DNA of 64,000 bases from an uncultured virus (IMG/VR IMGVR_UViG_2061766007_004243) (Duplodnaviria; Heunggongvirae; Uroviricota; Caudoviricetes). Below the pieces are notes generated by a model. It was not told the origin of the DNA. It was given only the letters and a program-made list of their open reading frames with translations, and did not search any database. Position 1 is the first letter of the stretch, and each line of letters opens with the position of its first letter. The position numbers and the translations under genes were made by a program. Shown here in pieces: positions 23,469 through 47,124 of this stretch. Location of the stretch: the IMG/VR virus record IMGVR_UViG_2061766007_004243, one strand, 5' to 3'.

Positions 23469-23484
23469 TACACTGGAGGTTATC

Positions 23485-26040: not shown

Positions 26041-26062
26041 TCTGTCGGTTCCNNNNNNNNNN

Positions 26063-26240: not shown

Positions 26241-26244
26241 ATTA

Positions 26245-26273
26245 ATTATACATAAAAATGAACGCGGCGTCAA
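26245..26273 (-). promoter_or_regulatory. Consensus sigma70 promoter for SH3b leader
   Basis: TTGACG-17-TATAAT; second allele TTGACG-17-TATAAT at 26650-26678. Confidence 0.8.
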
Positions 26274-26397
26274 ATTATACTTTCCGGCTCGAAACCGTGA
26301 ATTGATAACACATGGATAAATCCATCAGGATATGCTTGACTTTCGGATTCAAAAGAGGGATGTATACGCTACCTTGAAATTGGAGGAGGAAAACGAA

Positions 26398-27860: not shown

Positions 27861-28105
27861 AAAAACCTTCGCGCGAATACGTGGACTCGATTCGAAAGCA
27901 GTTCCCATCGGGCACACGCATAGAGCTTTTGCGTATGGATGATCCCTACAACAAAAAGCTCGTGCCCGGCAGCAGAGGCACCGTCAGATTTGTGGACTCC
28001 GCCGGCACACTGCAAATGGAATGGGACTGCGGTTCGTCGCTGGGACTGATCCCCGGCGAGGACGATTTCCGGATCATAGCTGAGGAGGCGAAAATACATG
28101 ACTGA
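27857..28105 (+). CDS. DUF4314 family protein
   Basis: FPSGTRIEL..MDDPY..PGSRGTV.FVD..G....WD.GSSLGLIPGED. Confidence 0.85.
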   Translation: MKKPSREYVDSIRKQFPSGTRIELLRMDDPYNKKLVPGSRGTVRFVDSAGTLQMEWDCGSSLGLIPGEDDFRIIAEEAKIHD

Positions 28106-28901
28106 TGATATGAAAAAGGCTCTGCTCGATATACGAGCCAGACAGGAATCCGGTGAACACATGCCCTGCCCCAGATGCGGTAGGGATAATATGAAACCGG
28201 AACTGCATACCAACGCGCTCAGCCGGTACGCTGATATCGCGATTTGTGACGAATGTGGTTCAGCAGAGGCGATGCTGCAATTCATGAACAGCCCGCTGCC
28301 TATCGAGGAATGGGCGGTATTCAACGACAGGACTCGCCGCGACGATTTCAAAGACATCCCCGGCGAGCAAGCCTGGGAGCAGATACAGAAAGANNNNNNN
28401 NNNTTACGAGCCAGACAGGAATCCGGTCAACACATGCCCTGTCCCAGGTGCGGCAGGGACACCATGAAGTCCAAACTGTACACCAATGCGCTGAGCCGGC
28501 ATGCCGACGGCATATACATCTGTGACGAGTGCGGTTCATCCGAGGCAATGCTGGATTTCATGAATAACCCGATGCCCATAGAGGACTGGGCGATATTCAC
28601 CCCTCAGGAGCACAGTGTGGATTTCAAAGATACTCCCGGTGATAAAGCCTGGGAGCGGATACAAAAAGAACAGATACAGTTGCTTGCGGAACTGTTCCGC
28701 GGCTGGCTCAACGGCGACGGCGATAAAGATTTCAAAGCATACCGCCGGGAAGCGATGCGGCGCTGCCCCGGGCTCACATTCCTTTTCGACAACCCTTTCT
28801 CCGCTGTGTACAAGGTGGCCGAGGGCGATCTGATCCTGCGGTTCAAAGACACTGACGACGGCGTGAAAATCAGCAAAGACATTTTGCATTTCCTGAAGTA
28901 A
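28098..28901 (+). CDS. Zinc-ribbon protein (two alleles joined at gap 28394-28403)
   Basis: CPRCG..NALSR..CDECG occurs twice, once either side of the gap. Confidence 0.75.
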   Translation: MTDDMKKALLDIRARQESGEHMPCPRCGRDNMKPELHTNALSRYADIAICDECGSAEAMLQFMNSPLPIEEWAVFNDRTRRDDFKDIPGEQAWEQIQKXXXXLRARQESGQHMPCPRCGRDTMKSKLYTNALSRHADGIYICDECGSSEAMLDFMNNPMPIEDWAIFTPQEHSVDFKDTPGDKAWERIQKEQIQLLAELFRGWLNGDGDKDFKAYRREAMRRCPGLTFLFDNPFSAVYKVAEGDLILRFKDTDDGVKISKDILHFLK

Positions 28902-29143
28902 CGGAACACGACAGGTCAGGCAGACAGACAAGCCCCAACCGATTCAAAAGCAGTACGGCATAACGCCGGCTGCTTTTTCGTTTGCCCATACGGGCCGCGA
29001 CGTTGGCTCACGTTCGCTTTTGCCGCCAGCCGCGGGTGATTGCCGCAGCCGATTCCAAAACCCGTACAAAGGCCGACACGCGGCAGAGACGAAAAAAGCC
29101 GCCCGAAGGCGGCATGAAGCGCTTCTGTATTTCAAAGCGCGTA

Positions 29144-29722
29144 TCAGAATGGGAGGTCGTATTTGAAAGGCAGGTAGCTTGTGTTGCTGTACAAGAGCCC
29201 GTCTTCATTCAGAAACTCGCCGACTGTGGCGATGTAGCCCTTCGCGTCCATGATGGCGAACTTAGACTGTGCTAGCTTCCAGATGAGCTCGAGCCGTTTT
29301 GTATTTCGAAGGTCAGACGGCCGCTGGATGATTCTTGTCAGGTAGTCCGTAATGAATATCGCTGTGTCGCTGTATTCCTTATTCCCCGGGTCGCTGGTCA
29401 GCCGGATGATTCCGTTGTGCGCGACGCCGCAGCGGCAGTCGACGTCCAGCGCTTTCATGTGCGCCGGGCGATTCGAGAGCGGGAACGGATGGGTCATCTG
29501 GGGATTGACCCCGGCCTGTGTGCTGATGCGGAAATGGTAGACGACCGGGTCAGCCTCGGTGAAGTGTTCCTCCTTCAGCGCATTTGAAAGCGCGGTGAGG
29601 TTCATGAAGCCCTTGCGGATGTGTACCCTGCCGTTGCGTGCGTACATGTATCCCGCTCCGTGCGGATTCCGTAGGAACATGGTCCTGATGGTTTGTGTGT
29701 CGGGCTGGCGAACGCCCTGGGG
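29144..29722 (-). CDS. Class II glutamine amidotransferase family protein, copy 2
   Basis: NPHGAG, HFRISTQ, HPF, HNG, SDT. Confidence 0.85.
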   Translation of the reverse strand, partial: PQGVRQPDTQTIRTMFLRNPHGAGYMYARNGRVHIRKGFMNLTALSNALKEEHFTEADPVVYHFRISTQAGVNPQMTHPFPLSNRPAHMKALDVDCRCGVAHNGIIRLTSDPGNKEYSDTAIFITDYLTRIIQRPSDLRNTKRLELIWKLAQSKFAIMDAKGYIATVGEFLNEDGLLYSNTSYLPFKYDLPF

Positions 29723-30091
29723 NNNNNNNNNNAGACATGGAGGATAAAGCACATGACTGAGGATATCAGGAAAGCCCTGCTCGATTTACGAGCCAGGCAG
29801 GAATCAGGCGAACATATGCCCTGCCCCAGATGCGGACGGGATACCATGTACGAGAACTTGTATACCAACGCTCTCAGCCGGGAAGCGNNNNNNNNNNATC
29901 CTCAGTTCACCTGATTCAGAAGCTGTGCGCGAAGGCGGCGGATGAGTCTGTCGGTCTCCCTGTGCGTGAGGCCGATGACTTCAAGGTCGTTCCTTCCGTT
30001 TACGGTGGCCATTAGTATCTCGAAGAGCTCCGTCCTGAAATCCTGTGCGTGGTTCTCCGGTTCCTGATTCCGGAGCANNNNNNNNNNGTTT

Positions 30092-30334
30092 TCAGTTCAC
30101 CTGATTCAGAAGCTGTGCTCGAAGGCGGCGGATTAGCCTGTCGGTCTCCCTGTGCGTGAGACCGATGACCTCAAGGTCGTTCCTTCCGTTTACGGTGGCC
30201 ATCAGGATCTCAAAGATCTCCGTCCTGAAATCCTGTGCGTGGTTCTCCGGTTCCTGATTCCGGAGCAGTTCCCACTCCTTCCTGATTTCAGAGAGTGTGT
30301 AGGTCCTGCGGTCGTTCAGGTCCATAAACTTCAT
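30092..30334 (-). CDS. Small hypothetical protein (80 aa, MKFMDLND..., cassette C)
   Basis: Homolog of 42590..42835 and of fragment 29898-30077; hairpin-SD leader. Confidence 0.8.
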   Translation of the reverse strand: MKFMDLNDRRTYTLSEIRKEWELLRNQEPENHAQDFRTEIFEILMATVNGRNDLEVIGLTHRETDRLIRRLRAQLLNQVN

Positions 30335-30376
30335 GGTATGTGTTCCTTTCCGGGCATAATACCCTGCTTGATTCAG

Positions 30377-30455
30377 GAGCCTGTGGCTCCGGGTGAAGGC
30401 TCTGCTCGATTCCAAAGCCCTCAGCCGGGGCCGCCGGTCGGCGGTGTGCCCGTGC
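30377..30455 (-). ncRNA. Conserved three-hairpin intergenic RNA candidate
   Basis: Homologous to 30553-30633 (-) and 42838-42914 (+); stems conserved, loops variable. Confidence 0.55.
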
Positions 30456-30651
30456 GCAAACGCCCTGCTCGATTTCAGAGCGTGTATCCGCATAAGTCAG
30501 CCATGTCGAGCGCTTCGACGGCGTAGTCTTCCGGGTCGATGNNNNNNNNNNTGTGAGCCTGTGGCTCCGGGTGAAGGCTCCTCTTGATTTGTGAGCCCTC
30601 AGCCGGGGCCGCCGGTCGGCGGTGTTCCCGTGCGCGATGCCCTGCTCGATT

Positions 30652-30900
30652 TCAGAGCGTGTATCCGTATAAGTCAGCCATGTCGAGCGCTTCGACGGCG
30701 TAGTCTTCCGGGTCGATGAAGGGATTCCAGTCGTACAGTTCGACCTTGTCGATTTGCGAGCCCACACAGTCTTCGATGAATTCAGCCCGGGCTTCTGTGT
30801 CCGGGAACCGTATGGCCCCGTCTTCTTCCAACTGTGCCACGGCATCCTCGAAACCGGATCGGATGTCGTCCTCGGTGATGACGGTGATGTACTTCTTCAT
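30652..30900 (-). CDS. Small acidic hypothetical protein (82 aa, MKKYI..., cassette B)
   Basis: Homolog of 42303..42551; hairpin-SD leader. Confidence 0.8.
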   Translation of the reverse strand: MKKYITVITEDDIRSGFEDAVAQLEEDGAIRFPDTEARAEFIEDCVGSQIDKVELYDWNPFIDPEDYAVEALDMADLYGYTL

Positions 30901-30948
30901 GGGGTGTATTCCTTTCCGGGCGTTTCACCCTGTGTTTTTCTGCGGCTT

Positions 30949-31008
30949 CCCGCGACCGGGTACTGTGCCCGGTTTCGGCCGGTTGCCGACCGGCGCTCGT
31001 CAGGCGGG
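30949..31008 (-). ncRNA. Type I hammerhead ribozyme (allele with 1-nt bulge in stem II)
   Basis: cccgc-CUGACGA-g(c)gccgg/ccggcc-GAAA-ccggg/cccgg-UC-gcggg. Confidence 0.85.
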
Positions 31009-31083
31009 GGTGGCCGTCCGGCCTCAGCCGGCCCGGCGCTGTGTCTCGGCCCCGTTGCGCCATGCGGCGTTGCNNNNNNNNNN

Positions 31084-31218
31084 TCGAAGCCGCGTCTCCT
31101 GCAGGCCCGCAGGGCGGAGCAGCTGAGAAGCCTCGACTTTACCGTGGCTGTTATCGACAGCCCGGAGGAGGCAGAGCGGTTCGCAAAGTCTGGAGGCGGT
31201 GCGGATGCTTACGCCTGA
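31084..31218 (+). CDS. VRR-NUC nuclease, C-terminal fragment
   Basis: KPRLLQ..RAEQLRSLDFTVAVIDS; precedes SNF2. Confidence 0.7.
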   Translation, partial: SKPRLLQARRAEQLRSLDFTVAVIDSPEEAERFAKSGGGADAYA

Positions 31219-33318
31219 GCAGCTTCACGGGTACCAGAGGTATGCGGCAGATTTCATCGTAGAGCATATGGCGTCGGCCATCCTTCTGGACTGCGGCTGC
31301 GGAAAGACAATCATCAGTTTGACGGCGATAGAGTCGCTTCTCCGAGATCGTTTTGAAGTCGGACGTGTTCTTGTCATCTGCCCGATCCGCGTGGCGCAGN
31401 NNNNNNNNNGTTATTACGCTGACCGCCCTTGAGTCATTGCTCCGAGATAGTTTTGAAGTCGGACGTGTTCTTGTCATCTGCCCGATCCGCGTGGCGCAGA
31501 TCTGGGCGGAGGAAATAGGAAAATGGGAGCATCTGAAGGGGCTGCGGTACAGCATCGCGGTGGGCACGGANNNNNNNNNNAGTAGAGCATATGGCGTCGG
31601 CCATCCTTCTGGACTGCGGCTGCGGAAAGACGATCATCAGTTTGACGGCAATAGATGAGCTCCTCCGAGATCGTTTTGAAGTCGGACGTGTTCTTGTCAT
31701 ATGCCCGATCCGCGTGGCGCAGGTCTGGGCGGAAGAAATAGGAAAGTGGGAGCATCTGAAGGGGCTGCGTTACAGCATCGCGGTGGGCACGGAAAGTCAG
31801 AGGCGCTACGCTCTTGGTGCGGATGCAGACATCTACATCGTGAACAGAGACGTTGTCCCCTGGCTGGTGGAGAACTACGCCGGGAGCTGGCGCTGGGACA
31901 TGCTCGTGCTNNNNNNNNNNAAGTCAGAGACGCTACGCTCTTGGTGCGGATGCAGACATCTACATCGTGAACAGAGACGTNNNNNNNNNNGAGCCAAAGG
32001 CGCTACGCCCTTGGTGCGGATGCAGACATCTACATCGTAAACAGAGACGTGGTCCCGTGGCTGGTGGAGAACTACGCCGGGAGCTGGCGCTGGGACATGC
32101 TCGTGCTGGATGAGCTGAGCAGCTTCAAGAATCCCCAGGCGAAGCGGTTCAAAGAGTTGTTGAAGGTCCGGCCGAAGGTAAGACGGATTGTCGGTCTGAC
32201 AGGGACTCCGTCCAGCAACGGCTTGATGGACCTGTGGGCGGAGTACCGCCTGCTGGACCTGGGAGAACGACTGGGAAAGTTCATCGGCGGGTACCGATCA
32301 CAGTACTTCCGGCCGGATAAGNNNNNNNNNNCTGATGGACCTGTGGGCGGAGTACCGCCTGCTGGACCTGGGAGAACGATTGGGAAAGTTCATCGGCGGG
32401 TACCGATCACAGTACTTCCGCCCGGATAAGNNNNNNNNNNGAGAGAACGATGAACAGCTCTGGATAGACTCCAAAGAATGTTCATCAAATCTTAACAGAG
32501 AAAAATAACCGAATTTCAAGCAGACCGGAGTAAACCGGANNNNNNNNNNCAATGGCATCATCGTGTACTCATATAAGCCGTTGCCGGGAGCCGAAGAGCG
32601 CATCTATAACCGGATCGCCGACATGACAGTCTCCATTCGCTGTACCGATGTTCTCCGGATGCCGGAGATGATCAGTTCTCCTTACGAAGTCCGCATGAGC
32701 GAGGAGGAAAAGACCGTGTACAGCCGCCTGAAGCGGGACTTGGTCCTGTCGCTTCCTGATGGGGAGGTAACCGCATCTAATGCAGCTGCCCTGTCGGGAA
32801 AGCTATCGCAGATGGCCAACGGCGCTGTGTACAACGATGACGGCGGTGTGGTGACCATCCACAGCCGGAAGCTCGATGCACTGGAAGACCTGATCGAAGC
32901 CCAGAATGGAAAGCCGCTTCTTGTCGCCTACTGGTTCAAGCATGACCTGGACAGGATCACGGAGAGGTTGCGAAGCCTGGGTATCCGTTACGCGAAGATC
33001 GACACCGAGGAGAGCATTTCCAGATGGAATCGGAAGATGATCCCTGTTGGGTTGATCCACCCCGCCAGCGCCGGTCATGGCCTGAACCTGCAGGCGGGCG
33101 GCAGCACCTTGATCTGGTTTGGCCTGACCTGGTCCCTTGAGCTTTACATCCAGACGAATGCCCGGCTCTGGCGGCAGGGGCAGGTCTCCAGCACGGTGGT
33201 GATTCAGCACATCGTCACAAAGGGAACGGTCGATGAACGGATCCTGAAAGCCCTGGAGGGCAAGGAGAGGACGCAAGCCGCGTTGATCGACGCGGTAAAA
33301 GCGGAGGTGAAAGCCTGA
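31205..33318 (+). CDS. Phage SNF2-family helicase (many redundant contig fragments)
   Basis: LDCGCGKT, LDELSSFKN, LTGTP, HPASAGHGLNLQ, QTNARLWRQGQ. Confidence 0.85.
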
Positions 33319-34391
33319 TGGAAACAGAGAAAGAGATATTCCGGGACCTGCTTGCGTACCTGGAAAAGTACAACGACCCGCCGACTGTGTATGACGACGG
33401 CTGCGTTGAATTCTGGAAACAGGCGGGCAATGACCTTACTAAGCTCCTGCGGGTGAAATGGCGCGAGCACCCGCTGGTGATGAAGCTGGGATTCGCGCTG
33501 ATAGTGTATATCGAAAACAAGAGCAAGGGAGGCGANNNNNNNNNNGGCCCTGGAGGGCAAGGAGAGGACGCAAGCCGCGCTGATCGACGCGGTAAAGGCG
33601 GAGGTGAAAGCCTGATGGAGACCGAGAAAGAGATATTCGCCGACTTATTCGAATATCTCAGAAAATATAACGACCCGCCGAGCTTATACGACGACGGCTG
33701 CGTGGAATTCTGGAAACAGGCGGGCGATGACCTGACTAAGCTCCTGCGGGTGAAATGGCGCGAACACCCGCTGGCGATGAAACTGGGATTCGCGCTGATA
33801 GTGTATATCGAAAACAAGAGCAAGGGAGGCGACGCGGTATGATCTGGAGGAACGGAGACGGATACCCCGACCCCACGGCGGGCGAGGCNNNNNNNNNNCT
33901 TGGCCAGGATGTAACCGCTTTTGCCCTTATATGAGCAATGGATGAACTCTTCGTTGTAGCGGATGCAACCCGTGACCGCCGCACCGAGGGGCACTTTGAT
34001 CAGGCGCTCACTCNNNNNNNNNNCCCGTCGGATGGTACGAACACCGGCCGGAAGCACGCTTCCCTGGAGACCTGCTTCGCTTACATACCCGCTGACGTAA
34101 GCAGCGGCGGTTATCCCGACTGCACGGCGCTCACGGGCGGCTGTCCCGGGTTCGACAAGTGTTCCTTCTACAAGGGCGTCAGCAGGCAAAAGGCTGACAT
34201 CGAAAAAGCCTACGAACAGATAAGGCAGAAAACCCACAGGGAACAAATGGCCATTTCCATGAAATACTACTCGGGCAGGATGCCCTGGAAGATAAAGGAG
34301 GCGGATGACGAGTGAACGCAAAAGAATTTCTGAGCCGCGCGTACAGGCTGGAAACGCGGATCGCTAACAAAAATGAGCAGATATATAGGTT
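33318..34391 (+). CDS. Fragments of late-early genes (two DPP/GC.EFW proteins, DPTA protein, DUF1492 N-terminus) with an interleaved SH3b fragment
   Basis: Homology to 21343-22432; several 10-N gaps. Confidence 0.65.
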
Positions 34392-34541
34392 NNNNNNNNN
34401 NNNNNNNNNNNNNNNNNNNNNNNNNNNNNNNNNNNNNNNNNNNNNNNNNNNNNNNNNNNNNNNNNNNNNNNNNNNNNNNNNNNNNNNNNNNNNNNNNNNN
34501 NNNNNNNNNNNNNNNNNNNNNNNNNNNNNNNNNNNNNNNNN

Positions 34542-34903
34542 TGCGTGTCGGGCATCTTTCTCAGCGATACATACTCGCTGCAGTTGCAGACCATCTGGTT
34601 GGGCAGGATCTCATCCTCAGCCACCCAGTAGGTCGTAGTTTTGAGGTATTTAGCTAATATGTAACCGCTTTTGCCGTCCCAGGTGCAATGCACAAAGCCG
34701 TTTTCAGCTTCGGTGCAGTAAATGACGTATTCGCCCAAATGCACCTTAGCGATGCGATCGGACTTAGTGTCCGGCTTTTCACGCAAGGATACATAATCGC
34801 TGCATTTTACCACCTGCATGACTTCGCTGACCTCTTCGGCCATTGAGGGTGCAAGACACAGCAGCAACGCTGAAAGCAGAACAATGCAAAGGATTCGTTT
34901 CAT
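34542..34903 (-). CDS. SH3b exported protein, second allele, N-terminal fragment
   Basis: Near-identical to 25680-26040; SD gggagg. Confidence 0.8.
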
Positions 34904-35080
34904 TCCTTTGGTTCCTCCCTTTTAGCAAAACCGCATGATAAGGTTGGTCGTATGGCAAAAGCCATGCGGAGGTGTCGCCTTTTTGTACGGTATTGCCTTA
35001 TCGGTGTTTTTGACTTTTCAGTGTCGAGAATCAAACCGTCGGATGATTGCCCTTGGAAAGGAGAATATAAACAAGACATG
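34904..35080 (-). ncRNA. Candidate structured leader of SH3b gene (5' truncated)
   Basis: Close homolog of 44324-44527. Confidence 0.55.
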
Positions 35081-35674
35081 GCAGACGAGCAATTCTACGT
35101 TTTCCTTCTGTCGGCTTTCAAGAACATGGCTGCGCACATGGCAGAAGGCGGCAGCGCGTACATCTTCCACGCAGACACCGAGGGCTTGAATTTCCGACGG
35201 GCATTCAAGGAATCCGGCTTTCACATTTCCGGTGTATGTATCTGGGTGAAGAACAGCCTGGTGCTCGGACGATCGCCCTATCAGTGGCAGCACGAGCCGG
35301 TGCTGTATGGATGGCTGCCCAACGGAAAGCATAAGTGGTTTGCCGACCGGAAGCAATCCACCATCTGGAATTTTGATAAACCCAAACGCAGTGCCAATCA
35401 TCCGACGATGAAACCGATCCCGCTGCTGGCCTACCCTATAAAAAACAGCAGCGCTCCGAACGCAGTGGTCATGGACCTGTTCGGCGGCAGCGGTTCGACA
35501 CTCATGGCCTGTGAACAGACAGAGCGTATATGCAGGACGATGGAGCTCGACCCCAGATACGCAACTGTAATATGTGAGCGTTTCCGCAATGAATATCCCG
35601 ACCAGGAAATCAGTGTAACAAGAGACGGCAAATCATATACATACGATGAAATTACCGGGTCTCGCGCGTCTTAA
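35078..35674 (+). CDS. DNA N6/N4 methyltransferase, C-terminal part
   Basis: YIFHADTEG, IWVKN, YQWQHEP, HPTMKP, DLFGGSGST, MELDP. Confidence 0.85.
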   Translation: MADEQFYVFLLSAFKNMAAHMAEGGSAYIFHADTEGLNFRRAFKESGFHISGVCIWVKNSLVLGRSPYQWQHEPVLYGWLPNGKHKWFADRKQSTIWNFDKPKRSANHPTMKPIPLLAYPIKNSSAPNAVVMDLFGGSGSTLMACEQTERICRTMELDPRYATVICERFRNEYPDQEISVTRDGKSYTYDEITGSRAS

Positions 35675-35709
35675 GACGATACTTATAAGACATAGAGGAT
35701 AAAACGCCT

Positions 35710-36429
35710 ATGCCGAAACCATTACCGACCGTCTCGTCCACGATAGGACTGAGCAAAGTGGTATTTGCACCACTTATACAGGACGACAGCAAGGGTACCA
35801 CGTACGGGGAACCGCGGAGACTGAAAGGAGCGATCGAGGCAAGCATAAGCAATGCCAACAGGGACCCGGTGATCACTTATGCGGACGACGGCGAGCACAG
35901 CTCCCTGTACCCTGATCCGGATATTACATTCAGGCTGAAACTGGCAGATCTGCCGCTTCTTTTCCTGCAGATGTTTTTCGACGGCGCTATCGATAAAAAT
36001 GGCGTCTGGGCCAGATCAGCACACAGAAAACCATACTATTACGCCATCGGGTTCAGGGCGCTGAAAGCAAACGGCAAATACCGTTACGTCTGGTTGTATA
36101 AATGCCGTGCAAATCTCATTACAGAAAGTTACGAAACGAAAAAAGGGCCGTCGCATTCGCGTCAGGAACCGGAGATCGAATTTGAAGCGCTCAGGCTTCG
36201 AAGCAGCGGCGTGTACCAGGCTGTAGCGGATGAGGATCGTACGAGACCGGACATTGCGTGGACTTTCCTGTCGAACGTATACGGTTACCGTGGCGACTGT
36301 TCGCTGGTTCTGGACGCGGTCCATTACCGGGTAAGCAGAAACAATACGGCGCTGCTATTGGATTCCGACGAATCCGCGGTTTACAGGGTTACCGGCCTAG
36401 GCAGCGCTATCATCATAACTACAGCATAG
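35710..36429 (+). CDS. Siphophage major tail protein (phi13-like family)
   Basis: IGLSKV.FA, YADDG, YYAIGFRALKANGKYRYVWLYK, YETK. Confidence 0.85.
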   Translation: MPKPLPTVSSTIGLSKVVFAPLIQDDSKGTTYGEPRRLKGAIEASISNANRDPVITYADDGEHSSLYPDPDITFRLKLADLPLLFLQMFFDGAIDKNGVWARSAHRKPYYYAIGFRALKANGKYRYVWLYKCRANLITESYETKKGPSHSRQEPEIEFEALRLRSSGVYQAVADEDRTRPDIAWTFLSNVYGYRGDCSLVLDAVHYRVSRNNTALLLDSDESAVYRVTGLGSAIIITTA

Positions 36430-36443
36430 ACAGGAGGCAGAAC

Positions 36444-37553
36444 ATGGCAGTATATGACCGCGTCACGATCGATGGTATTACAAAGCTTCTGGCAGACGGA
36501 GCGAACCTTTCCGGGTACACCGAAGTATCTTCTGTCGCCGCTTATACCCACGCGGCAGGGAGCTGCTTCACGCTTAACGGGCTTTTGTACAAAGCAACGG
36601 TCACGATCAGCGAAGGCAGCGATATTATTGAGCACACAAACTGTGAAAGAGCCTACGTTGCAGATGCCATATCGGACGTTGAGGAGAATACAAATAAGAA
36701 ACTTGCAGGTTTTATTACCGACATCGGAACGCTTAACGGCGTGATCTTCGAGCGCGGCATAAATCTTTACGACCCCAGTCTCCAGACGCCGGAGACCATC
36801 TCGCCGCACTACTACGTGAACGGCGTTCCCTACTCTTCGACCCAGTTCGACAACGCCTATAACTGCACCGCGCTCATACCGATAGAGCCGAACACCACAT
36901 ACACGATCGGGCTGATCGGCAGCAGCCTGACCAATCCGTGGGGCAGCGCCACCCAGCGCGGCTGGAGCTACGACGCCAACGGCGACTATATCTCCGGAAG
37001 CAACTGGCAGAGCAACACCTTCACCACGCCCGCAAACGCGGCGTTCATACGCTTCAACTACTACATTTCGGGCGGCATGGTGACGCTCGACACGCTCAAA
37101 AACAAGTGCATGCTGGTAAAGGGCGACACGCTGCCGGAGCAGTACTCGCCCTACGTGGCGCCCCGGACGCTGAGGGACGACGTGGAAGACCTGGAAGACG
37201 CGCTGGACGAGGCCGACCTGCCGGGCATGGAAACGGACATACAGACCGCGCTGGCGAAAGCCACCGCGCCGCTGCGGGCCATAGTCAACGCGGACGGCAC
37301 CGCCGTGACGGTCATTAGCAAATACTCGCCTACGGCAGACCTCGCCGTGACTGTAGGCACCGGCGGCGGGAACGGGCTTGTGGACTTCCGTACCTTCGCG
37401 CTGATCAGCAACAGCGCGGAAGAGCTTTCTGCGGACGCTGAGGATGCTGTGGAATTCTTCTCCACCTCTAGCGACTGGCACGCGCCGTTCATAGTAAAGG
37501 CAAAGGAGAACGGAGACGGCGGGCATCCCGACAGCGAGTACTTTACCGGCGGC
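36444..37553 (+). CDS. Phage tail-associated / structural-like protein, 3' end lost in gap
   Basis: AGGAGG SD; NLYDP, IPIEPNTTYTI, YDANG.YISG, FTTPANAAFIR, YSPY motifs typical of phage minor structural modules. Confidence 0.6.
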
Positions 37554-37563
37554 NNNNNNNNNN

Positions 37564-37795
37564 GCAGACGCGCATCCTCCAGGAACTGTACGTGCGGTGG
37601 CTGTCAGAAAAAGCCGGAGCGGATTTCAAACCGTACCGGAAGGAAGCGCTAAGGCGCTGCCCGGGGCTCTCGTTCATGATGGAGCGGCCCTTCTCCGCGG
37701 TGTACAAAGTGGCGGAGGGCGAGCTGGTGCTGCGTTTCAAAAGCACAGCCAAAGGCGTAAAGATCAGCAAGGATCTTCTGCGGTTCAGTAAATAA
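37564..37795 (+). CDS. Zinc-ribbon protein, C-terminal fragment
   Basis: Homolog of 43713 copy. Confidence 0.7.
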
Positions 37796-37997
37796 AGAAC
37801 GCATAGAAAGCAGAGGGAAACACAACAATCTGAAATAAAAAGCAGTGGGTAGAAACGCCTACTGTTTTTTACTTGGGAAGGGAGGGATATTGCATGAGCT
37901 CTGAACTGGATAATTAATATATTCTATTCTGCTCTCAAATAGAGGTTGAGAACGCTATTCACTTATCGCAAAAACATATAGTATAGGAGATTGTATT

Positions 37998-38579
37998 ATG
38001 GGATACATATGTAAGGTACGAACCTATCTTCCGCTTGACGACAACGGGAAACCGATTATATCGGCTTTTGGATATTATGATTTAGAAATCAGTTCTGATG
38101 GCTCTTCAGGATCACCTGCACTTCATTTTGACGAGCATACACAAGTGACAAATCCAGTATTCTGTTATGGCCATAACAGTTATAATCAAGGTAAAATTAT
38201 CATATTTGACGCATCGAAAACCACCAATATATTCGATCCATCACGGCTGATTTTTAAGTGGGAGTTTAGTGCTTCAAATAATCAGGTAAATACCTTTTTG
38301 ACAGCTATGCATAATGCGCTTCAGTACAGTTCGGGTGATGCCGATACAGGAGATTGTGCACACTACAATGTTGTTGCCGGACCGTTCATAACTTATTCGT
38401 TAGAACACATAAACTGTTTTTATGCTACGGCTTTTATGTGTAATAAACTTGGAAAAAGTACGCTACTAAATATATACAATAGTAATAATGGCTCGGACAC
38501 AGGATATTTGAACTATAGAGCCTGGACAATGTTTGGTGCTAACTATACATCATGGAAAGCGGCGTTGCTAATAAGATAA
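37998..38579 (+). CDS. Low-GC hypothetical protein, possible inactive permuted papain-like fold
   Basis: Paralog of next gene; GYYDL in place of GHYEL; YSLEHINCF. Confidence 0.7.
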   Translation: MGYICKVRTYLPLDDNGKPIISAFGYYDLEISSDGSSGSPALHFDEHTQVTNPVFCYGHNSYNQGKIIIFDASKTTNIFDPSRLIFKWEFSASNNQVNTFLTAMHNALQYSSGDADTGDCAHYNVVAGPFITYSLEHINCFYATAFMCNKLGKSTLLNIYNSNNGSDTGYLNYRAWTMFGANYTSWKAALLIR

Positions 38580-38594
38580 TAGGAGGAATCAATA

Positions 38595-39182
38595 ATGCCT
38601 ACGACGAATCATGGTGTCAGAATATATGTTCCGTTTCATTCTGACTCAAAAAAACCGTACACTAACCACAACGGTCATTATGAACTCCAATTAGCGGATT
38701 CCAGTTTTACATTTAACGCATATCAGATAGGTGATGACGTAAATGTAAATAATCCTCAACAGTTTAGTTTTAACGAACCTGTGATTTCTTATGGAGGTCG
38801 GTCAGGTGAAGGATATTTGACAATTAAGAACCGGGTAAACATGACCAATAAACCAGATAGCCTCCTTTGCTACTTTCCATTTACAGGTACAGATGAAGGA
38901 AAGGCAAATCTAAAAACATGGCTACAGAGTTATATAAGATATGACCCAATAAATTCAGACAGCACCACAAAATTATTTAAAGTCATTCATCCGGAATTTA
39001 GCACATACAGTGCACCCGATAGTAATTGCTTTATGGTCACTGCTTTGTTCTGCAATACTCTTGGGTACCCAACTCTCCAAAACATCTGTGACGATGCATC
39101 AAGTTATACACAGTATACAGCATGGCCGATGTTTATGCAACATAAAGCAAACTGGGAACTGGTAGACCTAAATTTAACCTGA
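38595..39182 (+). CDS. Low-GC hypothetical protein, possible permuted papain-like (NlpC/P60 superfamily) enzyme
   Basis: GHYELQL, VISYG, YSAPDSNCF; AGGAGG SD. Confidence 0.7.
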   Translation: MPTTNHGVRIYVPFHSDSKKPYTNHNGHYELQLADSSFTFNAYQIGDDVNVNNPQQFSFNEPVISYGGRSGEGYLTIKNRVNMTNKPDSLLCYFPFTGTDEGKANLKTWLQSYIRYDPINSDSTTKLFKVIHPEFSTYSAPDSNCFMVTALFCNTLGYPTLQNICDDASSYTQYTAWPMFMQHKANWELVDLNLT

Positions 39183-39200
39183 TGAGTTGACAAACAAAGC

Positions 39201-40004
39201 ATGAGAGCTATAATGAAAGAAAAGGAGGCTTTTCTCGGGATGCAAAGATTGCTGATACTTTTATTATCGCTCTCATTGCTTTTTGGCGGAGAAATAGAAG
39301 CAAATGCTGATGCTGTCGAAAAGCTGTTTCCGGATTTTTATATCTCTGAATTATATCAGCTGGATCTGGAAGACCCTTATTCCGATGCAAACAGGTATAT
39401 ATCGCGCAAATTCGATTGGCTTGCCGGACAGTATTACATATGCGGCAAATATGTGATCTACGCGGACGAGATGCCTTTGTGTGTGGACGAAGACAGCTTT
39501 GACGAGTGTAGTTTTTGGGGCGAGACAGGTATGGATGTCGTAGAGTGGGCAGCGATAATCATGGGCAAAAGAGGCGATACGGAAGAAATAATAAACAGTA
39601 TCCCAAGGGTCGAAGACATGGATTTTTCCCAGCCCTTGACGAAGGAGCGGCTGAAGCATCTCAATTATTCACTGCAGTTTGAAGAAGAACATTTGATATC
39701 ACTGATGCAGACTGATGATGTAAATAAATATCTGTGGCTCGCGAGCTATCGTGTAGAGACGATACGCTGGGGAGACTGGCTTTTAATCATGTCAGCGCCG
39801 CCACCGACGTTTGAGAAAGAAAAAGATCCATGGTATATAAGGCAGGGCGAATGGGCGTATAAATACTATGCAGACAATCCTGAATACATGAAGCAGGTAC
39901 AGGAGGACGGATACAAGGAAGTGAGACAAGAATTCGGTTACGGCGACCTGTGGGAGATATTCTTCGAGGAACATCCCGAGGCTCTGTACCTGAATGACGA
40001 TTAG
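39201..40004 (+). CDS. Acidic exported hypothetical protein
   Basis: Signal peptide MQRLLILLLSLSLLFGG (true start probably 39240 after aaggagg). Confidence 0.7.
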   Translation: MRAIMKEKEAFLGMQRLLILLLSLSLLFGGEIEANADAVEKLFPDFYISELYQLDLEDPYSDANRYISRKFDWLAGQYYICGKYVIYADEMPLCVDEDSFDECSFWGETGMDVVEWAAIIMGKRGDTEEIINSIPRVEDMDFSQPLTKERLKHLNYSLQFEEEHLISLMQTDDVNKYLWLASYRVETIRWGDWLLIMSAPPPTFEKEKDPWYIRQGEWAYKYYADNPEYMKQVQEDGYKEVRQEFGYGDLWEIFFEEHPEALYLNDD

Positions 40005-40225
40005 AATAGATACAGATTCATAAAAGTCGCAGTAATGACCAAATAAAAGCCAGCTTGATTTGGAAGCAGTGGGGGAGAGCCCGCTGCTTTTCGTTTGCGC
40101 ACGTGAGCCCGTACGTTGGCCCACGTTCGCCTTTGTATCCATTTTCGGGTGAATCACCGTAACCGATTCAAAAGCCCACACGAGGCCGACACGCGCCGTG
40201 GACGAAAAAAGCCGCCTTTCAAAAC

Positions 40226-40314
40226 AAAAAAAAAGCAGGCAGACCACCCTCAACAAAAGGACAACCTGCCTACTTCCATCGTGGTATTTTAACAGTTGCA
40301 GAATGAAATATCAA
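40226..40314 (-). ncRNA. Promoter-hairpin-terminator unit, candidate ~55-nt sRNA
   Basis: TTGATA-17-TAAAAT (40314-40286) followed by gtaggcagg...tctgcctgc and a T9 run. Confidence 0.6.
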
Positions 40315-40364
40315 TAGTCAGTTTGACTGTGACCTAGGATGCGCTTCCCGATTTGGAAGCCCTG

Positions 40365-40600
40365 TCAGAATGGCATGTCAGTGTACGCGGGCATGTAACT
40401 CAGGTTACTGTAGAGCAGCCCGTCTTCATTTACGAACCTTCCGACTGTGGCAATGTAGCCTTTGCCATCCATGATCGCGAACTTGGACAGCGCCAGTTTG
40501 TATATGAGCTCCAGCCTTCGCTCATCCTTAAGGTCAGATGGTCGTCTGATGATCCGTGTCAGGTAATCCGTAATGAATATGGCGGTGTCGCTGTACTCCC
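40365..40600 (-). CDS. Class II glutamine amidotransferase, copy 3, C-terminal fragment
   Basis: EYSDTAIFITDYL...DMPF. Confidence 0.8.
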
Positions 40601-40610
40601 NNNNNNNNNN

Positions 40611-41717
40611 CCAAGTGGTAGCCAAGACACTGCCCACCAACACACTCGGAGACGGAGCCCGGGTGGAGCACACCGGCGGTTCCTACGACACTTGGACGGT
40701 AACGGGTATAGACGGACGGAAGTGGAAACTCATGAGCGACGCCAGCATCGAGGGACCTTTTGAACAACGCACCGAGTTCGTGACCCCCATCTGCCGCTGG
40801 GAAGACATCGAGACGGTACAGGCCATAATCCGGGCTTTGCGGGAAGCCGGGGCACAGGCACACTCCTCCTGCGGCATCCACGTACACATCGGACTGGGTC
40901 AGCATACGCCCAAGACCCTCAGGAACTTGGTGAACATAGTAAACGCCAAGGAAGACCTTCTGACCCAAGCCCTGCAGATAAGCCCGGAACGCCGGGAACG
41001 CTGGTGCCAAGAGGTAGACCCATACTTCCTGCAGGTACTCAACAGGAGAAGGCCGACCACATCCGAACAGCTGGCGCAACTTTGGTATGACGACCGGGAC
41101 TGGGAGTACCACGCTCACGACCATTATGACCGGAGCCGCTACCACCTGCTGAACCTGCATGCGGTGTGGCAGAAAGGCACCATCGAGTTCCGGGCTTTCA
41201 ACAGCACGCTCCACGCCGGGGAGATTAAAGCCTACATACAGCTTTGCATGGCCATAAGCCATCAGGCCCTCACGGTAAGCACAGCGAGCCCCACGAGGCC
41301 GGTGACGGACAACCCCGCATACACCTTCCGGTGCTGGCTCCTCAGGCTGGGGCTNNNNNNNNNNCACGATTGAATTCCGGGCTTTCAACAGCACGCTCCA
41401 CGCCGGGGAGATTAAAGCCTACATACAGCTTTGCATGGCCATAAGCCACCAAGCCCTGACGGTAAGCACAGCGAGCCCCACACGGCCGGTCACGGACAAC
41501 CCCGCATACACCTTCCGGTGCTGGCTCCTCCGACTTGGGCTGAACGGCGAGGAGTTCAAGACCGCCCGGACGCACCTGCTCAAGCACCTGCCCGGCAACG
41601 CCGCNNNNNNNNNNGAACGGCGAGGAATTCAAGACCGCCCGGACACACCTTTTAAAGCACCTGCCCGGCAACGCCGCATGGCGCAACGGGGCCGAGACAC
41701 AGCGCCGGGCCGGCTAA
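40611..41717 (+). CDS. Putative amidoligase (COOH-NH2 ligase type 2), three overlapping fragments
   Basis: WKLMSDASI, EFVTP, SCGIHVHI, RYHLLNL, GTIEFRAFNST, FRCWLLRLG; stop TAA at 41717. Confidence 0.88.
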
Positions 41718-41754: not shown

Positions 41755-41813
41755 CCCGCCTGACGAGGCCGGAGGGCGACCGGCCGAAACCGGGCACAGT
41801 ACCCGGTCGCGGG
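41755..41813 (+). ncRNA. Type I hammerhead ribozyme
   Basis: cccgc-CUGACGA-ggccgg(agggcga)ccggcc-GAAA-ccggg(cacagua)cccgg-UC-gcggg; predicted cut after 41808. Confidence 0.92.
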
Positions 41814-41915
41814 AAGCCGCAGAAAAACNNNNNNNNNNTGCCGAGACACAGCGCAGGGCCGGCTGAGCCGGCCGGGCACACTGAGATGAGCGAGGTGACC
41901 GAATGGAACACACTG

Positions 41916-41974
41916 CCCGCCTGACGAGGCCGGACGGCGACCGGCCGAAACCGGGCACACTACCCGGTCGCGGG
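41916..41974 (+). ncRNA. Type I hammerhead ribozyme (second allele)
   Basis: Same core and stems, loops acggcga and cacacua; predicted cut after 41969. Confidence 0.92.
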
Positions 41975-42302: not shown

Positions 42303-42551
42303 ATGAAGAAGTACATCGCCGTCATCACCGAGGATGACATCCGCTCCGGTTTCGAGGAAGCCGTGGCACAGCTGGAAGAAGACGGAGCCATCAGGTTCCC
42401 GGATACAGAATCCCGCACAGAGTTCATAAACGACTGCGTGAGCTGTGAAATCGACAGGTACGAGCTTTACGAGAGCGACCCATTCGCACACAGGCCGGAC
42501 TACGCCGTTGCGGTATTGGATATGGCCGGACTGTACGGATACACGCTCTGA
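42303..42551 (+). CDS. Small acidic hypothetical protein (82 aa, cassette B)
   Basis: Homolog of 30652..30900. Confidence 0.8.
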   Translation: MKKYIAVITEDDIRSGFEEAVAQLEEDGAIRFPDTESRTEFINDCVSCEIDRYELYESDPFAHRPDYAVAVLDMAGLYGYTL

Positions 42552-42589
42552 AATCAAGCAGGGCATCATGCCCGGAAAGGATACACACC

Positions 42590-42835
42590 ATGAAGTTCAT
42601 GGATCTTAACGACCGCAGGACTTACACACTCTCTGAAATCAAGAGGGACTGGTCACAACTCCGGAATCAGGAACCGGAGAATCACGCTCCTGATTTCAAG
42701 ACTGAGCTCTTCGAGATACTCATGGCCACAGTCAACGGCAGGAACGACCTCGAGGTCATCGGCCTCACACACAGGGAGACCGACAGGATCATCCGCCGCC
42801 TTCGCGCACAGCTGCTGAATCAGGCAGACCGTTGA
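42590..42835 (+). CDS. Small hypothetical protein (81 aa, cassette C)
   Basis: Homolog of 30092..30334. Confidence 0.8.
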   Translation: MKFMDLNDRRTYTLSEIKRDWSQLRNQEPENHAPDFKTELFEILMATVNGRNDLEVIGLTHRETDRIIRRLRAQLLNQADR

Positions 42836-42837
42836 CA

Positions 42838-42914
42838 CACGGGCACGCCGCTTAAGCGGCCCCGGCTGAGGGCTCACGAATCGAGCTGAGCCTTCACCCG
42901 GAGCCACTGGCTCA
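42838..42914 (+). ncRNA. Conserved three-hairpin intergenic RNA candidate
   Basis: gccgc-ttaa-gcggc; ccgg.tgagggct/agccttca.ccgg; agcc-act-ggct. Confidence 0.55.
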
Positions 42915-42946
42915 CGTATCTTTCAAATCAAGGAGGACACTCACAC

Positions 42947-43518
42947 ATGTGCATCATCTGCGTATCANNNNNNNNNNTCGCACCATGTTCCTCAGGAATC
43001 CCCACGGAGCCGGTTACATGTTCGCACGCAACGGGAAAGTACATATCCGCAAGGGCTTCATGAACCTCACCGCGCTTTCAAATGCGCTAAAGGTTGAGAA
43101 GTTCACGGACAACGACCCGGTCGTCTACCATTTCCGCATCAGCACGCAAGCGGGCATCAACCCCCAGATGACGCATCCGTTCCCGCTCTCAAATCAGCCG
43201 GCGCACATGAAAGCGCTGGATGTTGACTGCAGGTGTGGGATAGCGCACAACGGGATAATCGACATAACCACTGACCCGCGCAATCGTGAGTACAGCGACA
43301 CGGCCATATTCATTACGGATTACCTGACACGGATCATACGCAGACCGTCCGACCTTAAGGATGAACGGAGACTGGAGCTCATATACAAACTGGCCCAGTC
43401 CAAGTTCGCCATCATGGACGGCAAAGGCTACATTGCCACAATCGGAAGGTTCATAGATGAAGACGGACTTCTGTACAGCAACCTGAGCTACATACCCGCA
43501 TACGACTTACCGTTCTGA
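42947..43518 (+). CDS. Class II glutamine amidotransferase, copy 4 (gap near 5' end)
   Basis: AAGGAGG SD then ATG-TGC (MCIICV, N-terminal nucleophile Cys); NPHGAG, HFR, HNG. Confidence 0.9.
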
Positions 43519-43712
43519 CACAGCTTCCAAATCAAGAAGCGCGTTTTGCCGCCTGCGGGCGGCTTTTTTCGTCTCTCGCACGTGTTGGCTTGTACGNNNN
43601 NNNNNNNNNNNNNNNNNNNNNNNNNNNNNNNNNNNNNNNNNNNNNNNNNNNNNNNNNNNNNNNNNNNNNNNNNNNNGGGCTCTCCCCCACTGCTTCTAAA
43701 TCGAGTCGCGCG

Positions 43713-44594: not shown

Positions 44595-45263
44595 TCATTC
44601 ACCATCACCTGCTTCCAAATCGGCAGGGGCGTGTATCGTTTCGCGCTGCGCCCTGCGCCGGGAATTGACCCTTGCGATGTGCGCGTCCAGCTGTGCCTTG
44701 CTCTTGAATGCGGCGTAGCCCTTCAGGTGTCCGGTGAGCAGGCGTCTGTGCGCGCTGTGCTCCGGTCCGGCCATGCCCAGCTGATTGAGGAAACTGTAGC
44801 AGTAATACTTCATCTCATCCTCAGCCGGGTCAACGAGCTTACGGCTCACATTTCCCGCGCTTCGGGCACGCTCCAGAATGCGGTCCAGCAGCCGCGCGTA
44901 GATCACGATCTCATCCTGCGTATGCTCCGCACCCGGTACTGTTATGCCCAGGCTGTCGCTGGTCAGCTGTATCCCTTTGACCATACCCACACGGATCTCG
45001 TTCTGTACCAGCTCCGAAATACGCTCGAGGGTATCGGGCTTTTCATCGTCCAGCAGGTCGATCAGTTCTTCATCGATGTATATCTCGCCGTTTTGGATCA
45101 TGGCTGCCAGGAGTTTCTGGCGCGCGTACAGTACCCTGATCAGGCTGCGCATGGCTTTGGGAGTCATATTACCAATGGATATGCTGATATCCAGGCGGTC
45201 GGGCTGCGTGGGTTCTGGCGGCATATTGACTGCTTCGTGGTTCTGTGTTCTTGCTCTCGGCAT
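44595..45263 (-). CDS. Homolog of the 27149-27860 protein lacking its N-terminal domain (second allele fragment 45315-45470)
   Basis: LYARQKLL, KYY.YSFLNQLG, GHLKGYAAFK; AGGAGG SD. Confidence 0.75.
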   Translation of the reverse strand: MPRARTQNHEAVNMPPEPTQPDRLDISISIGNMTPKAMRSLIRVLYARQKLLAAMIQNGEIYIDEELIDLLDDEKPDTLERISELVQNEIRVGMVKGIQLTSDSLGITVPGAEHTQDEIVIYARLLDRILERARSAGNVSRKLVDPAEDEMKYYCYSFLNQLGMAGPEHSAHRRLLTGHLKGYAAFKSKAQLDAHIARVNSRRRAQRETIHAPADLEAGDGE

Positions 45264-45545: not shown

Positions 45546-47124
45546 CTAAGCTGTACAATGGGAGGGCAATGGCCTGACGAATTCCTCCAAGAGCATCACG
45601 CTCGTTTGGAAGTCAGTCAGCCGGCCTTCCCGTTGTGCAGCGTTCGATTTGTGCAGGTAGAGCACCCATAAGGGGCACTCGAGTCAGCGAACAGATAGAA
45701 TCGGCGATGGGTAAAGGCGGTTCGCCATTGTANNNNNNNNNNCAACACATCGGGAGGATTCAACATGTTCGCAGTAGGAGTCGATGTTTCCAACGGCAGA
45801 AGCACAGTCGCTGTACTTGGAGCCAGGAGAACAGTGGTGGTGAGGCCGTATGAGGTTCCACACACAGCGGATGGTTTTGCCGAGCTGACGGCAAGGCTCA
45901 ATGATCTGGATGGCGAGGTCAGGATCGTCATGGAGCATACCGGGCGGTACTATGAATCGTTAGCCATGAGTATGTACCGGGCAGGCTTCTTTGTGTCTGC
46001 CGTGAACCCTCTGGCTATCAAGGATTACCAGGAGGGGATCAGCGTCCGGAAGGTGAAGACCGACAAAGCAGACGCCCTGAAGATCGCCCAGTTTGCCATT
46101 GACAAATGGGAGATCCTGCCGCAGTATAGTCCCATGGATACGATTCGCTACGACCTCAAGACCATTCACCGGCAGTTCCAGCTGTCCTCCAAGACCAAGA
46201 CCGCGCTGAACAACAATCTGATCGCTCTGTTGGAGCAGAGCTACCCCGGCGCGAACAGGTACTTCGACAGCCCGGTCCGGCCGGACGGCAGCCAGAAATG
46301 GGTGGACTTCGCAGACACCTTCTGGCACGTGGACTGTGTGGCCAAGGTCAGCCGAAAGACTTTTACGGAGCGGTACCGGAAGTGGTGCAAGCGTCACGGA
46401 TACAACTTCTCCGAAGCCAAGGCTGTCGAAATTCACGAGGATGCCAGGCAGAAGTTCCCGCTAGTACCCAAGTCCGACACCTGCAAGCTTTTGGTCAAGG
46501 AAGCTGTTAGCCAGCTCAACGCTGTTTCCCGCACGGTGGAAACCTACCGCGCTGAGATGGATCGCCTGGCCTCTCAGCTTCCGGAATACGAGACTGTCAT
46601 GGCCATGACCGGCGTGGGCAAGTCCATGGGACCGCAGTTGATGGCAGAGATCGGCGACCTTCGCCGCTTTGCGCACCAGAAGTCTCTGGTAGGCTTTGCC
46701 GGCACCGATCCGATCAAGGATGATTCCGGCGACAAGGTTTCCGACAGCAANNNNNNNNNNGCGCGGTTCTCCTTACCTTCGCAAGACGCTCTTTGTTATC
46801 ATGACGATCCTGCTGCAGCTTCAGCCCCCGGACGATCCTGTCTACCAGTTCCTGGACAAAAAGCGCTCCGAGGGCAAGCAGTACTATGTGTACATGACTG
46901 CCGGCATGACCAAGTTCCTGCGCATCTACTACGGTAGGGTCCGTGATTGTCTCAAAGAGAAAGGTCTCTGGGAGCAGCCCTCTGTTGATGAGGTCAACCC
47001 TGGTTGACAGGGGTTGGGAACCAACCCCTTGACTGTCCATGAGCATAGACAGCACGACGAGTCAAGGATGCCGTAGGCACGGCCGAAGGCCGCTTGTCCT
47101 TGACGCGGCGGGATGGCTGTGCTA
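45546..47124 (+). mobile_element. IS110-family insertion sequence with long structured left end
   Basis: DEDD recombinase plus ~200-nt structured upstream region; shared CTA core at 45546-45548 and 47122-47124 (ends inferred). Confidence 0.7.
45765..47007 (+). CDS. IS110-family recombinase/transposase (frame broken only at gap 46751-46760)
   Basis: VGVDVS, MEHTG.Y, VNP, KTDKADA, GVG, AEIGD..RF, DSG, RGSPYLR. Confidence 0.92.

Follow-up and report, generated by a model that had tools for sequence, protein, structure and literature searches.

The early genes of phage T7 carry RNase III processing hairpins (R0.3-R1.3), and an RNase III site is a double-stranded RNA of some two helical turns (roughly 20 bp), in which an internal loop is frequently present. 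The early mRNA of phage SP82 is said to contain sites for the RNase III of B. subtilis, and cluster K mycobacteriophages reportedly possess a motif, SAS/ESAS, located upstream of many start codons. A different kind of RNA device is the hammerhead ribozyme, whose core (C3-U4-G5-A6-N7-G8-A9 and G12-A13-A14) surrounds a three-way junction, with cleavage after UH; the type I form is recognized by the sequences CUGANGA and GAAA, the A15.1-U16.1 pair, H17, and stems I-III, of which stem I is open. The examination of gene contexts shared with hammerheads reportedly led to the discovery of twister-sister, pistol and hatchet. In prophages, multiple hammerheads flank single genes, which was read as mRNA processing, with a presumed role in converting a long phage transcript into gene-length mRNAs, according to the accessible part of the report (Perreault 2011, PMC3088659). 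The accessible part of a further article describes 33 of the 36 RAGATH motifs as being without demonstrated ribozyme activity (PMC11061315).

Here we describe a three-hairpin RNA element found between small genes in a 64,000-nucleotide stretch of DNA of an uncultured virus (IMG/VR record IMGVR_UViG_2061766007_004243), referred to below, as a whole, as the window. Like the T7 and SP82 RNase III hairpins, at which the cut leaves a 3' hairpin stabilizing the upstream mRNA, the element is a repeated, sequence-related intercistronic structure with an internal mismatch, occurring in phage early operons; unlike them, it is composed of three hairpins instead of one, has a central helix (P2) of only 12-14 bp, is known from sequence alone, and belongs to phages whose host is an uncultured Clostridia-type gut bacterium. 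The SAS/ESAS system resembles this locus in that a short motif, recurring through one part of the genome, lies just before start codons and sometimes follows an imperfect inverted repeat, but the sequence and the host are different; at the present locus, the hairpins show RNA covariation and trade places with ribozymes, and the motif is also found antisense in convergent genes. With the clustered hammerheads of prophages, as presented in the accessible part of that report, the element shares the genomic slot (between small genes of one operon) and the phage lineage, but it lacks the CUGANGA/GAAA core and the three-way junction, and its anatomy does not suggest self-cleavage (Perreault 2011, PMC3088659). 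The RAGATH motifs, a list known here by description only, are likewise conserved structured RNAs defined by a gene context shared with hammerheads, whereas the element matches no Rfam 15 model (PMC11061315).

Organization of the window and of the gene module

The window was assembled as a scaffold and contains 53 N-runs, with gaps that break reading frames. Sequences flanking the 10-N gaps (e.g., 30542-30551, 41829-41838 and 42968-42977) are repeated across each gap with 90-98% identity. The scaffold sets strain variants in tandem, and the "repeats" and "alleles" of the window have arisen in part through assembly. Among named relatives, the nearest is PV036454, a phage of Christensenellales (Ca. 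Heliusvirales) that comes from human faeces; the terms ribozyme, hammerhead, amidoligase, intergenic and non-coding do not occur in the Heliusvirales paper.

On the plus strand, the gene module carrying the element is composed of (i) an amidoligase gene (40573-41373; PF12224, E 1.9e-55), (ii) a hammerhead and its allelic duplicate, (iii) three small genes, (iv) the element, (v) a gene whose product begins MCIICVS, (vi) a terminator, and (vii) two convergent genes, encoding a Zn-ribbon protein and a second amidoligase. The same layout occurs in the complete provirus G001 and in PV036454. The small gene directly upstream of the element (42590-42835, plus strand) encodes an 81-aa protein ending in ...LNQADR*, with no PHROG or Pfam match, and its stop codon abuts the element. 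The leader of the next gene (42919-42946, plus strand) contains a strand-polar motif (tctttcaaatca), described below, followed by the ribosome site aggagg, the end of which is 7 nt before the ATG at 42947. The MCIICVS gene (42947-43518, plus strand) is interrupted by the assembly gap 42968-42977, and its homologue in G001 matches phrog_2520, gamma-glutamyl cyclotransferase. An intrinsic terminator is a GC-rich hairpin directly before a U tract, and a canonical one (GCCGCCTGCGGGCGGC followed by TTTTTT; 43548-43569, plus strand) closes the small-gene operon. One junction of the module (42545-42589, plus strand) is "empty": it consists of the motif, a leader hairpin (gggcatcatgccc) and a ribosome site, without the element, and in a by-eye comparison it joins the same two gene families as those that flank copies B and C of the element, described below.

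The small-gene array is bracketed by two oppositely oriented amidoligase paralogues, along with a gene for a gamma-glutamyl-cyclotransferase-like or N-terminal-Cys protein and the Zn-ribbon gene. Such paralogues are located at 40573-41373 (plus), 44595-45263 (minus) and 27201-27860 (plus) of the window, and at 9737-10969 (plus) and 14125-15030 (minus) of locus L172. This two-amidoligase layout is kept in G001 and in the window; in the PV036454 record only one gene is labelled as an amidoligase, and the products of the convergent genes are labelled hypothetical. An IS110-family transposase gene (45765-46937, plus strand; PF01548, PF02371) is inserted beside the second amidoligase gene of the window and was not seen at the corresponding place in G001 or PV036454. 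Elements of the IS110 family use a bridge RNA.

The three-hairpin element in the window

Three copies of the element were located in the window: copy A (42836-42918, plus strand; covariance-model match of 96.4 bits, E 4e-20), copy B (30551-30634, minus strand; 99.3 bits), which adjoins the N gap 30542-30551, and copy C (30373-30456, minus strand; 101.1 bits). The sequence and the three-hairpin pattern given in a preliminary description of this DNA were thereby confirmed. The same description spoke of three alleles, and three copies do exist, but B and C are strain variants of one locus lying on either side of the assembly gap, since the post-gap sequence repeats the pre-gap sequence (30555-30718 versus 30377-30541; 165 nt, 92.7% identity). 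Copy A sits in a second, inverted copy of the gene module that holds B and C.

In copy A the hairpins occupy positions 42847-42860 (P1), 42862-42901 (P2) and 42902-42912 (P3). Copies B and C share the P1 sequence ccgcc-gacc-ggcgg; that of copy A is gccgc-ttaa-gcggc. P2 has the form ccgg-c-tgagggct(c)...(g)agccttca-c-ccgg, with a loop of 12-14 nt; in copy A it comprises 4 bp, a C.C mismatch, a further 9-10 bp, and the 12-14-nt loop with GCTCACGAATCGA. P3 has the form agcc-acW-ggct. Of two sequences taken from the arms, the 13-mer CCGGCTGAGGGCT has exactly three occurrences in the window, and 13 matches were found with up to 2 mismatches, against 1.62 expected (0 of 100 shuffles equalled this number); for the 17-mer AGCCTTCACCCGGAGCC, which also has exactly three occurrences, 6 matches were found with up to 3 mismatches, against 0.16 expected. 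RNA folding of the three copies gave -41.2, -39.6 and -46.4 kcal/mol (z of -3.6, -3.5 and -3.0). The reverse strands fold about equally well (z of -3.7 and -2.1), so folding energy by itself cannot indicate the strand to which the element belongs.

Distribution and covariation of the element family

A covariance model was built from five element copies, and loci were fetched with a 23-nt pattern, which yielded 5 loci from viral contigs and 31 from metagenome contigs. One of the metagenome loci (L161) was a chance match, having the 23-mer without the fold of the element. At E<=0.01 the model gave 70 hits in 39 sources, weak reverse-strand echoes included. At E<=1e-5, in a run that omitted L137, L141 and L145 (twins of included loci), L159 (overlapping L158), L167 (a truncated hit) and L124-L127 (without a strong hit), the forward hits numbered 57 (46 distinct) and came from 32 of the 33 sources, which are loci of related phages and metagenomes. 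Several loci contain two to four copies of the element, with four within 2.4 kb in L142. The loose core pattern TGAGGGCT-N-AGCCTTCA identified 120 loci in viral contigs and matched twice only in L038. A Phycisphaerales locus, obtained in a genome scan with a pattern demanding two letters where most copies have one, was not recognized by the model.

Within the model alignment 96.8% of the cells are paired, a value that is to be read with the alignment having been fitted to the model, which favours the structure; when the partner columns were slid by 1-3 positions, pairing fell to 37-51%. Compensatory (both-side) changes occur in 9 of the 24 pairs (7/14 in P2, 2/6 in P1 and 0/4 in P3), and none of 500 shuffles matched the covariation score. 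A covariation analysis of homologues had been proposed in the preliminary description, and its outcome is positive. The swaps are plain in the raw sequences as well: TGAGGG/CCTTCA is replaced by GGAGGG/CCTTCC or AGAGGG/CCTTCT, GGGCT/AGCC by GGGCAT/ATGCC or GGGCC/GGCC, and CCGG/CCGG by CCTC/GAGG. In the family alignment, G.U cells outnumber A.C cells (89 versus 20), and at one position of P2 a G.U pair is kept in 40 of the 46 copies, from which it follows that the fold belongs to the gene-sense strand. The element represents a real, covarying family of structured RNA. With its 46 distinct variants, nature has already provided a set of compensatory mutants, and the element is a clean, short candidate for ribozyme or RNase III tests.

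Hammerheads in the same genomic slot

The window carries a type I hammerhead at 41755-41813 (plus strand; CUGACGA, stem II, GAAA, stem III, UC/GCGGG), its allelic duplicate at 41916-41974 (plus strand), situated across the N gap 41829-41838, and the hammerhead of the inverted module copy at 30949-31008 (minus strand). The hammerhead array mentioned in the preliminary description is thus real, but it is small within the window, where each module copy has one hammerhead. A structural search revealed 21 distinct hammerheads, each with CUGANGA, GAAA and the A15.1-U16.1 pair, a UC or UA cleavage site, and an open stem I of 5 bp. Their consensus fold contains stems I, II and III, with compensatory changes in 7 of 15 pairs, and the neighbouring hammerheads are canonical type I ribozymes. 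None of the hammerheads of the window was reported in scans with Rfam 15 (to E<=10), and RF00163 alone found no hammerhead in four phage records. The Rfam type I model appears to have a blind spot for the hammerheads of this phage lineage (also for those of L122, L123, L124 and others), so that a whole lineage of canonical phage hammerheads is missed.

The element and the hammerheads occupy the same slot before homologous genes. A gene encoding MQKQDIRNIY... is preceded by a hammerhead in L123, and one encoding MKKQDIRNIY... by the element in L139, L143 and L164; similarly, MCVICAS... stands behind a hammerhead in PV036454, and MCIICVS... behind the element in the window, L149 and L154. At least one hammerhead is present within 1-3.5 kb in 11 of the 32 element-bearing loci, and the gene context shared with hammerheads, part of the original observation, is therefore borne out. 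A regular-expression survey of 111 distinct junctions, which is crude and covers loci chosen for holding the element, assigned 45 junctions to the element, 10 to hammerheads and 56 to neither. In distant relatives of the MC(I/V)I gene, no hammerhead, element or motif was found at the corresponding junction. The accessory-gene operons of these phages appear to use interchangeable RNA punctuation marks, and the alternation of an uncatalogued RNA fold with a true ribozyme at the same junctions provides a natural experiment in which self-cleavage can be set against nuclease-guided processing.

Comparison with known RNA classes

No match to the element was obtained with Rfam 15, either at the gathering score or at E<=10, in the window and its relatives (including a lax-filter scan of 1.25 kb), a negative of limited power, as the same scans missed genuine hammerheads. 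The comparison spanned the hammerhead types, twister, twister-sister, pistol, hatchet, HDV-like, hairpin, VS, glmS and hovlinc ribozymes, and it agrees with the earlier statement that the element cannot be assigned to a known ribozyme family. The family is uncatalogued in Rfam 15; the 36 RAGATH motifs were compared by description only, and an earlier, undeposited description of the element is possible.

Anatomically, the element is a series of three hairpins joined by linkers of 0-1 nt, without an enclosing helix or a multi-helix junction, and its conserved letters fall within helices. The triloop of P3 (ACA) is conserved, and the loops of P1 and P2 vary. The 5' letter of the 1x1 mismatch in P2 is T in 18, C in 17, G in 5 and A in 1 of 45 rows (gaps in 4), with the mismatch replaced by a G-C pair in 5 of the 45 copies, and the C on the opposite side is constant in 41 of 45. 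According to thermodynamic models, pairing of the 5' flank (CGGR with YCCG) and a longer P3 compete with the base of P2.

These features bear on the possibility that the element is a new class of self-cleaving ribozyme, or some other protein-independent processing RNA, that replaces hammerheads at many junctions, with the GAGGG/CCUUC helix, the G.U pair and the C bulge as its active site. Such a role would fit the shared slot before homologous genes, the position of the element outside every known Rfam family, and the unusually conserved helix letters with the fixed G.U and the constant C opposite the mismatch. We nevertheless consider it distinctly unlikely: there is no multi-helix junction, enclosing stem or pseudoknot candidate, the loops of P1 and P2 vary freely, and internal loops are limited to the 1x1 mismatch, which has a variable 5' letter and is paired in 5 copies. 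Furthermore, the RAGATH motifs were found by the same logic, and 33 of those 36 lack demonstrated activity in the accessible part of the source (PMC11061315). The element had been put forward as a candidate self-cleaving or processing RNA; the absence of a junction and the unconserved mismatch speak against the first term, and the second is retained in a wider sense, with processing by protein nucleases preferred.

A hammerhead or hammerhead-derived relic was rejected as an explanation, since the element has neither GAAA nor the junction, and its CUGA-like letters vary and covary as part of a helix (CUGAGGG of the window copies is elsewhere UUGAGGG, GUGAGGG, CAGAGGG or CGGAGGG, covarying with the 3' arm). 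A tRNA-like or enclosing stem was also rejected, the flanks of the element not being complementary, as was a sigma-70 promoter reading of TTCACC-N16-TAAATC, for which 0 promoter-like sites were found. RNA libraries constitute 5 of the 8 listed runs, with small shares; contigs from these libraries bridge the element and likewise the hammerhead cleavage site, and they say nothing on cleavage or transcription.

The GC-rich hairpins immediately behind stop codons could also suggest a factor-dependent or leaky transcription terminator or attenuator placed after each small gene, and P3 of copy A with its tail (ACGTATCTTT) indeed passed a simple terminator scan. It was, however, the only copy to do so: across 50 distinct contexts listed, the tails are CCTGAATCAAG-like and not U-rich. 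The argument of the preliminary description that the element has no U tract and is not a terminator accordingly stands for the family, with the tail of copy A as a terminator-like exception in that scan. Up to four copies lie within 2.4 kb of one operon (L142), the operon is already closed by a canonical terminator, and the hammerheads found in the same slot are not terminators. We regard termination as a most improbable function of the element.

Linkage of the element to neighbouring genes

The start of the model lies between -16 and +21 nt from the upstream stop codon, which in the TIVQSR* type is located inside P1, and the next ATG is found 15-59 nt past the end of the element. The subtype of P1 tracks the upstream gene (TIVQSR* in 5/5, LNQAxR* in 3/3 and LYGYTL* in 4/4 cases), while up to four different downstream genes follow a single upstream type and element subtype. 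The element therefore behaves like the 3' terminus of the cistron before it. In contigs from other samples it is connected to different genes (joints 42569>42856, 42242>42855, 42912>42582 and 42915>42003), and strain-to-strain breakpoints fall after the element. P3 is always succeeded by YYNRAATCRA, after which there is either a small covarying leader hairpin with GGAAAGGA, or GAAGGAGG directly.

The leader hairpin of the empty junction (42561-42573; gggcatcatgccc) lies directly 5' of the ribosome site GGAAAGGA, a position that it has in many loci. It covaries between junctions (GGGC/GCCC, GCGC/GCGC, GGCG/CGCC), is found whether or not an element or hammerhead is present upstream, and may be a protector of the 5' end.

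The joining of one element to different genes might also be explained at the level of DNA, by a recombination joint or a mobile hairpin module (attC-like or MITE-like) that swaps gene cassettes. In keeping with this, the element is absent from and present at one gene pair (42545-42589 empty; copies B and C filled), a 19-nt direct repeat (the motif and half of the leader) flanks the filled site, and, besides the variable joints in other samples, different downstream genes stand behind one element subtype. But the same slot is occupied by hammerheads, which are RNA-only devices, and the compensatory changes and the excess of G.U over A.C (89 to 20) show selection for a single-strand fold of the sense strand. 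In addition, the copies within one genome have diverged (L136), so that recent transposition did not produce them; neither an integrase nor a HUH transposase was found beside the arrays of the annotated relative PV036454, and the IS110 transposase gene (45765-46937) was seen in this window only. This explanation we judge very unlikely, and the gene shuffling may be a by-product of the repeated sequence.

An attC site ends an imperfect palindrome with the core sites RYYYAAC...GTTRRRY and is adjacent to an integron integrase gene; no GTTRRRY/RYYYAAC was found at the ends of the element and no integrase is annotated near the array of PV036454, so this identification was discarded. A hairpin element of the IS200/IS605 type was discarded too, the sole transposase nearby being of the IS110 family.

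Predicted role in mRNA processing

The reading that we prefer, and to which we give about an even chance of being correct, is that the element serves the upstream cistron as an intercistronic punctuation RNA, at which host nucleases would make a cut or set a boundary and leave protective hairpins. In the polycistronic operons (early or accessory) of Heliusvirales-like gut phages, it would constitute the cis-acting 3' untranslated end of the upstream cistron, and would do by structure what type I hammerheads do by self-cleavage, i.e., split the message into single-gene units and protect their ends. A host endonuclease might cut either the P2 helix (an RNase III-like enzyme, as at the T7 and SP82 sites) or the single-stranded, AU-rich stretch immediately 3' of P3 (an enzyme of the RNase Y or J type); the leftover hairpins would then block 3' exonucleases, and the downstream 5' end would be guarded by the small hairpin that precedes the next ribosome site in the leader. 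More speculatively, a ribosome terminating beside P1 could switch the RNA between the fold with three hairpins and a fold with one long hairpin.

P2, with its 12-14 bp, can be extended to 16-18 bp if it takes in the last part of P1 and the first part of P3. This long-helix alternative is possible in 45 of 45 copies, gains 3-4 pairs, and has a mean energy 1.4 kcal/mol higher than that of the three-hairpin fold; with 16-18 predicted pairs, it would approach the length of an RNase III substrate. Several points stand against punctuation. P2 proper is short for RNase III, and the longer helix is formed at the expense of P1 and P3, of which P1 covaries. P3 shows no covariation (0/4 pairs). GAGGG/CCUUC is strongly conserved, as are the G.U pair, the C opposite the mismatch and the ACA triloop; this is more than an RNase III site or an exonuclease barrier needs, and points to a specific partner or a tertiary structure.

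The strand-polar motif GCTYYNRAATC

The 11-mer GCTYYNRAATC has a strongly biased strand distribution. In 20 kb of G001 it was found 27 times on the strand of the array and 0 times on the other, with all sites within about 5 kb, and in 45 kb of PV036454 the respective numbers are 17 and 1. The window, with its two inverted modules, contains 12 plus-strand sites (12704, 13045, 13286, 13401, 42257, 42545, 42872, 43185, 43523, 43692, 44203 and 44611) and 20 minus-strand sites, from 23130 to 40360; elsewhere the motif extends over 11087-16013 of L172 and 17855-25266 of L174. The motif domain covers about 5 kb from the first hammerhead and becomes sparser downstream. Individual sites lie in the loop of P2, at the 3' arm of P3, after hammerheads, before ribosome sites and inside coding sequence, and beyond the operon terminator the motif continues antisense across the convergent genes, where its reading frame is not constant. 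It is absent from the distant relatives that lack hammerheads. A peptide origin of the antisense copies was rejected because their reading frames differ.

With the motif taken into account, the element could be a binding platform or switch, in which a phage or host protein reads GCUYYNRAAUC and controls the translation or stability of the next gene: the P2 loop would display one copy of the motif, and P3 would sequester the 5' half of a second copy before the ribosome site. The motif is indeed present in the P2 loop of most copies and always at the 3' arm of P3, it recurs in the stem III loop of hammerheads (L123, L171) and in the terminator loop of PV036454, and GGCUCC and GGAGCC, each occurring twice, allow alternative pairings, the two folds being nearly isoenergetic. 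On the other hand, some P2 loops are without the motif (the GGGCATCAAACACAGGATGCC and CTCCTGYTGGGAA loops), no candidate protein was identified, and the motif is also found within coding sequence and antisense to genes, which leads us to rate this possibility as unlikely. For the preferred reading, punctuation by host nucleases, the motif is also a point against: its occurrence in the P2 loop and the P3 3' arm and, antisense, past the terminator hints at a reader other than mRNA processing. The polar 11-mer, which pays no regard to gene orientation, is stranger than the element itself and may point to a new way in which phage DNA or RNA is read.

Copies of the motif placed in loops were located in stem III of hammerheads at 5471-5502 of L123 and 842-902 of L171, and in the loop of the operon terminator near 23653 (minus strand) of L174. 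In each of these cases the GCTYY letters pair with a downstream complement.
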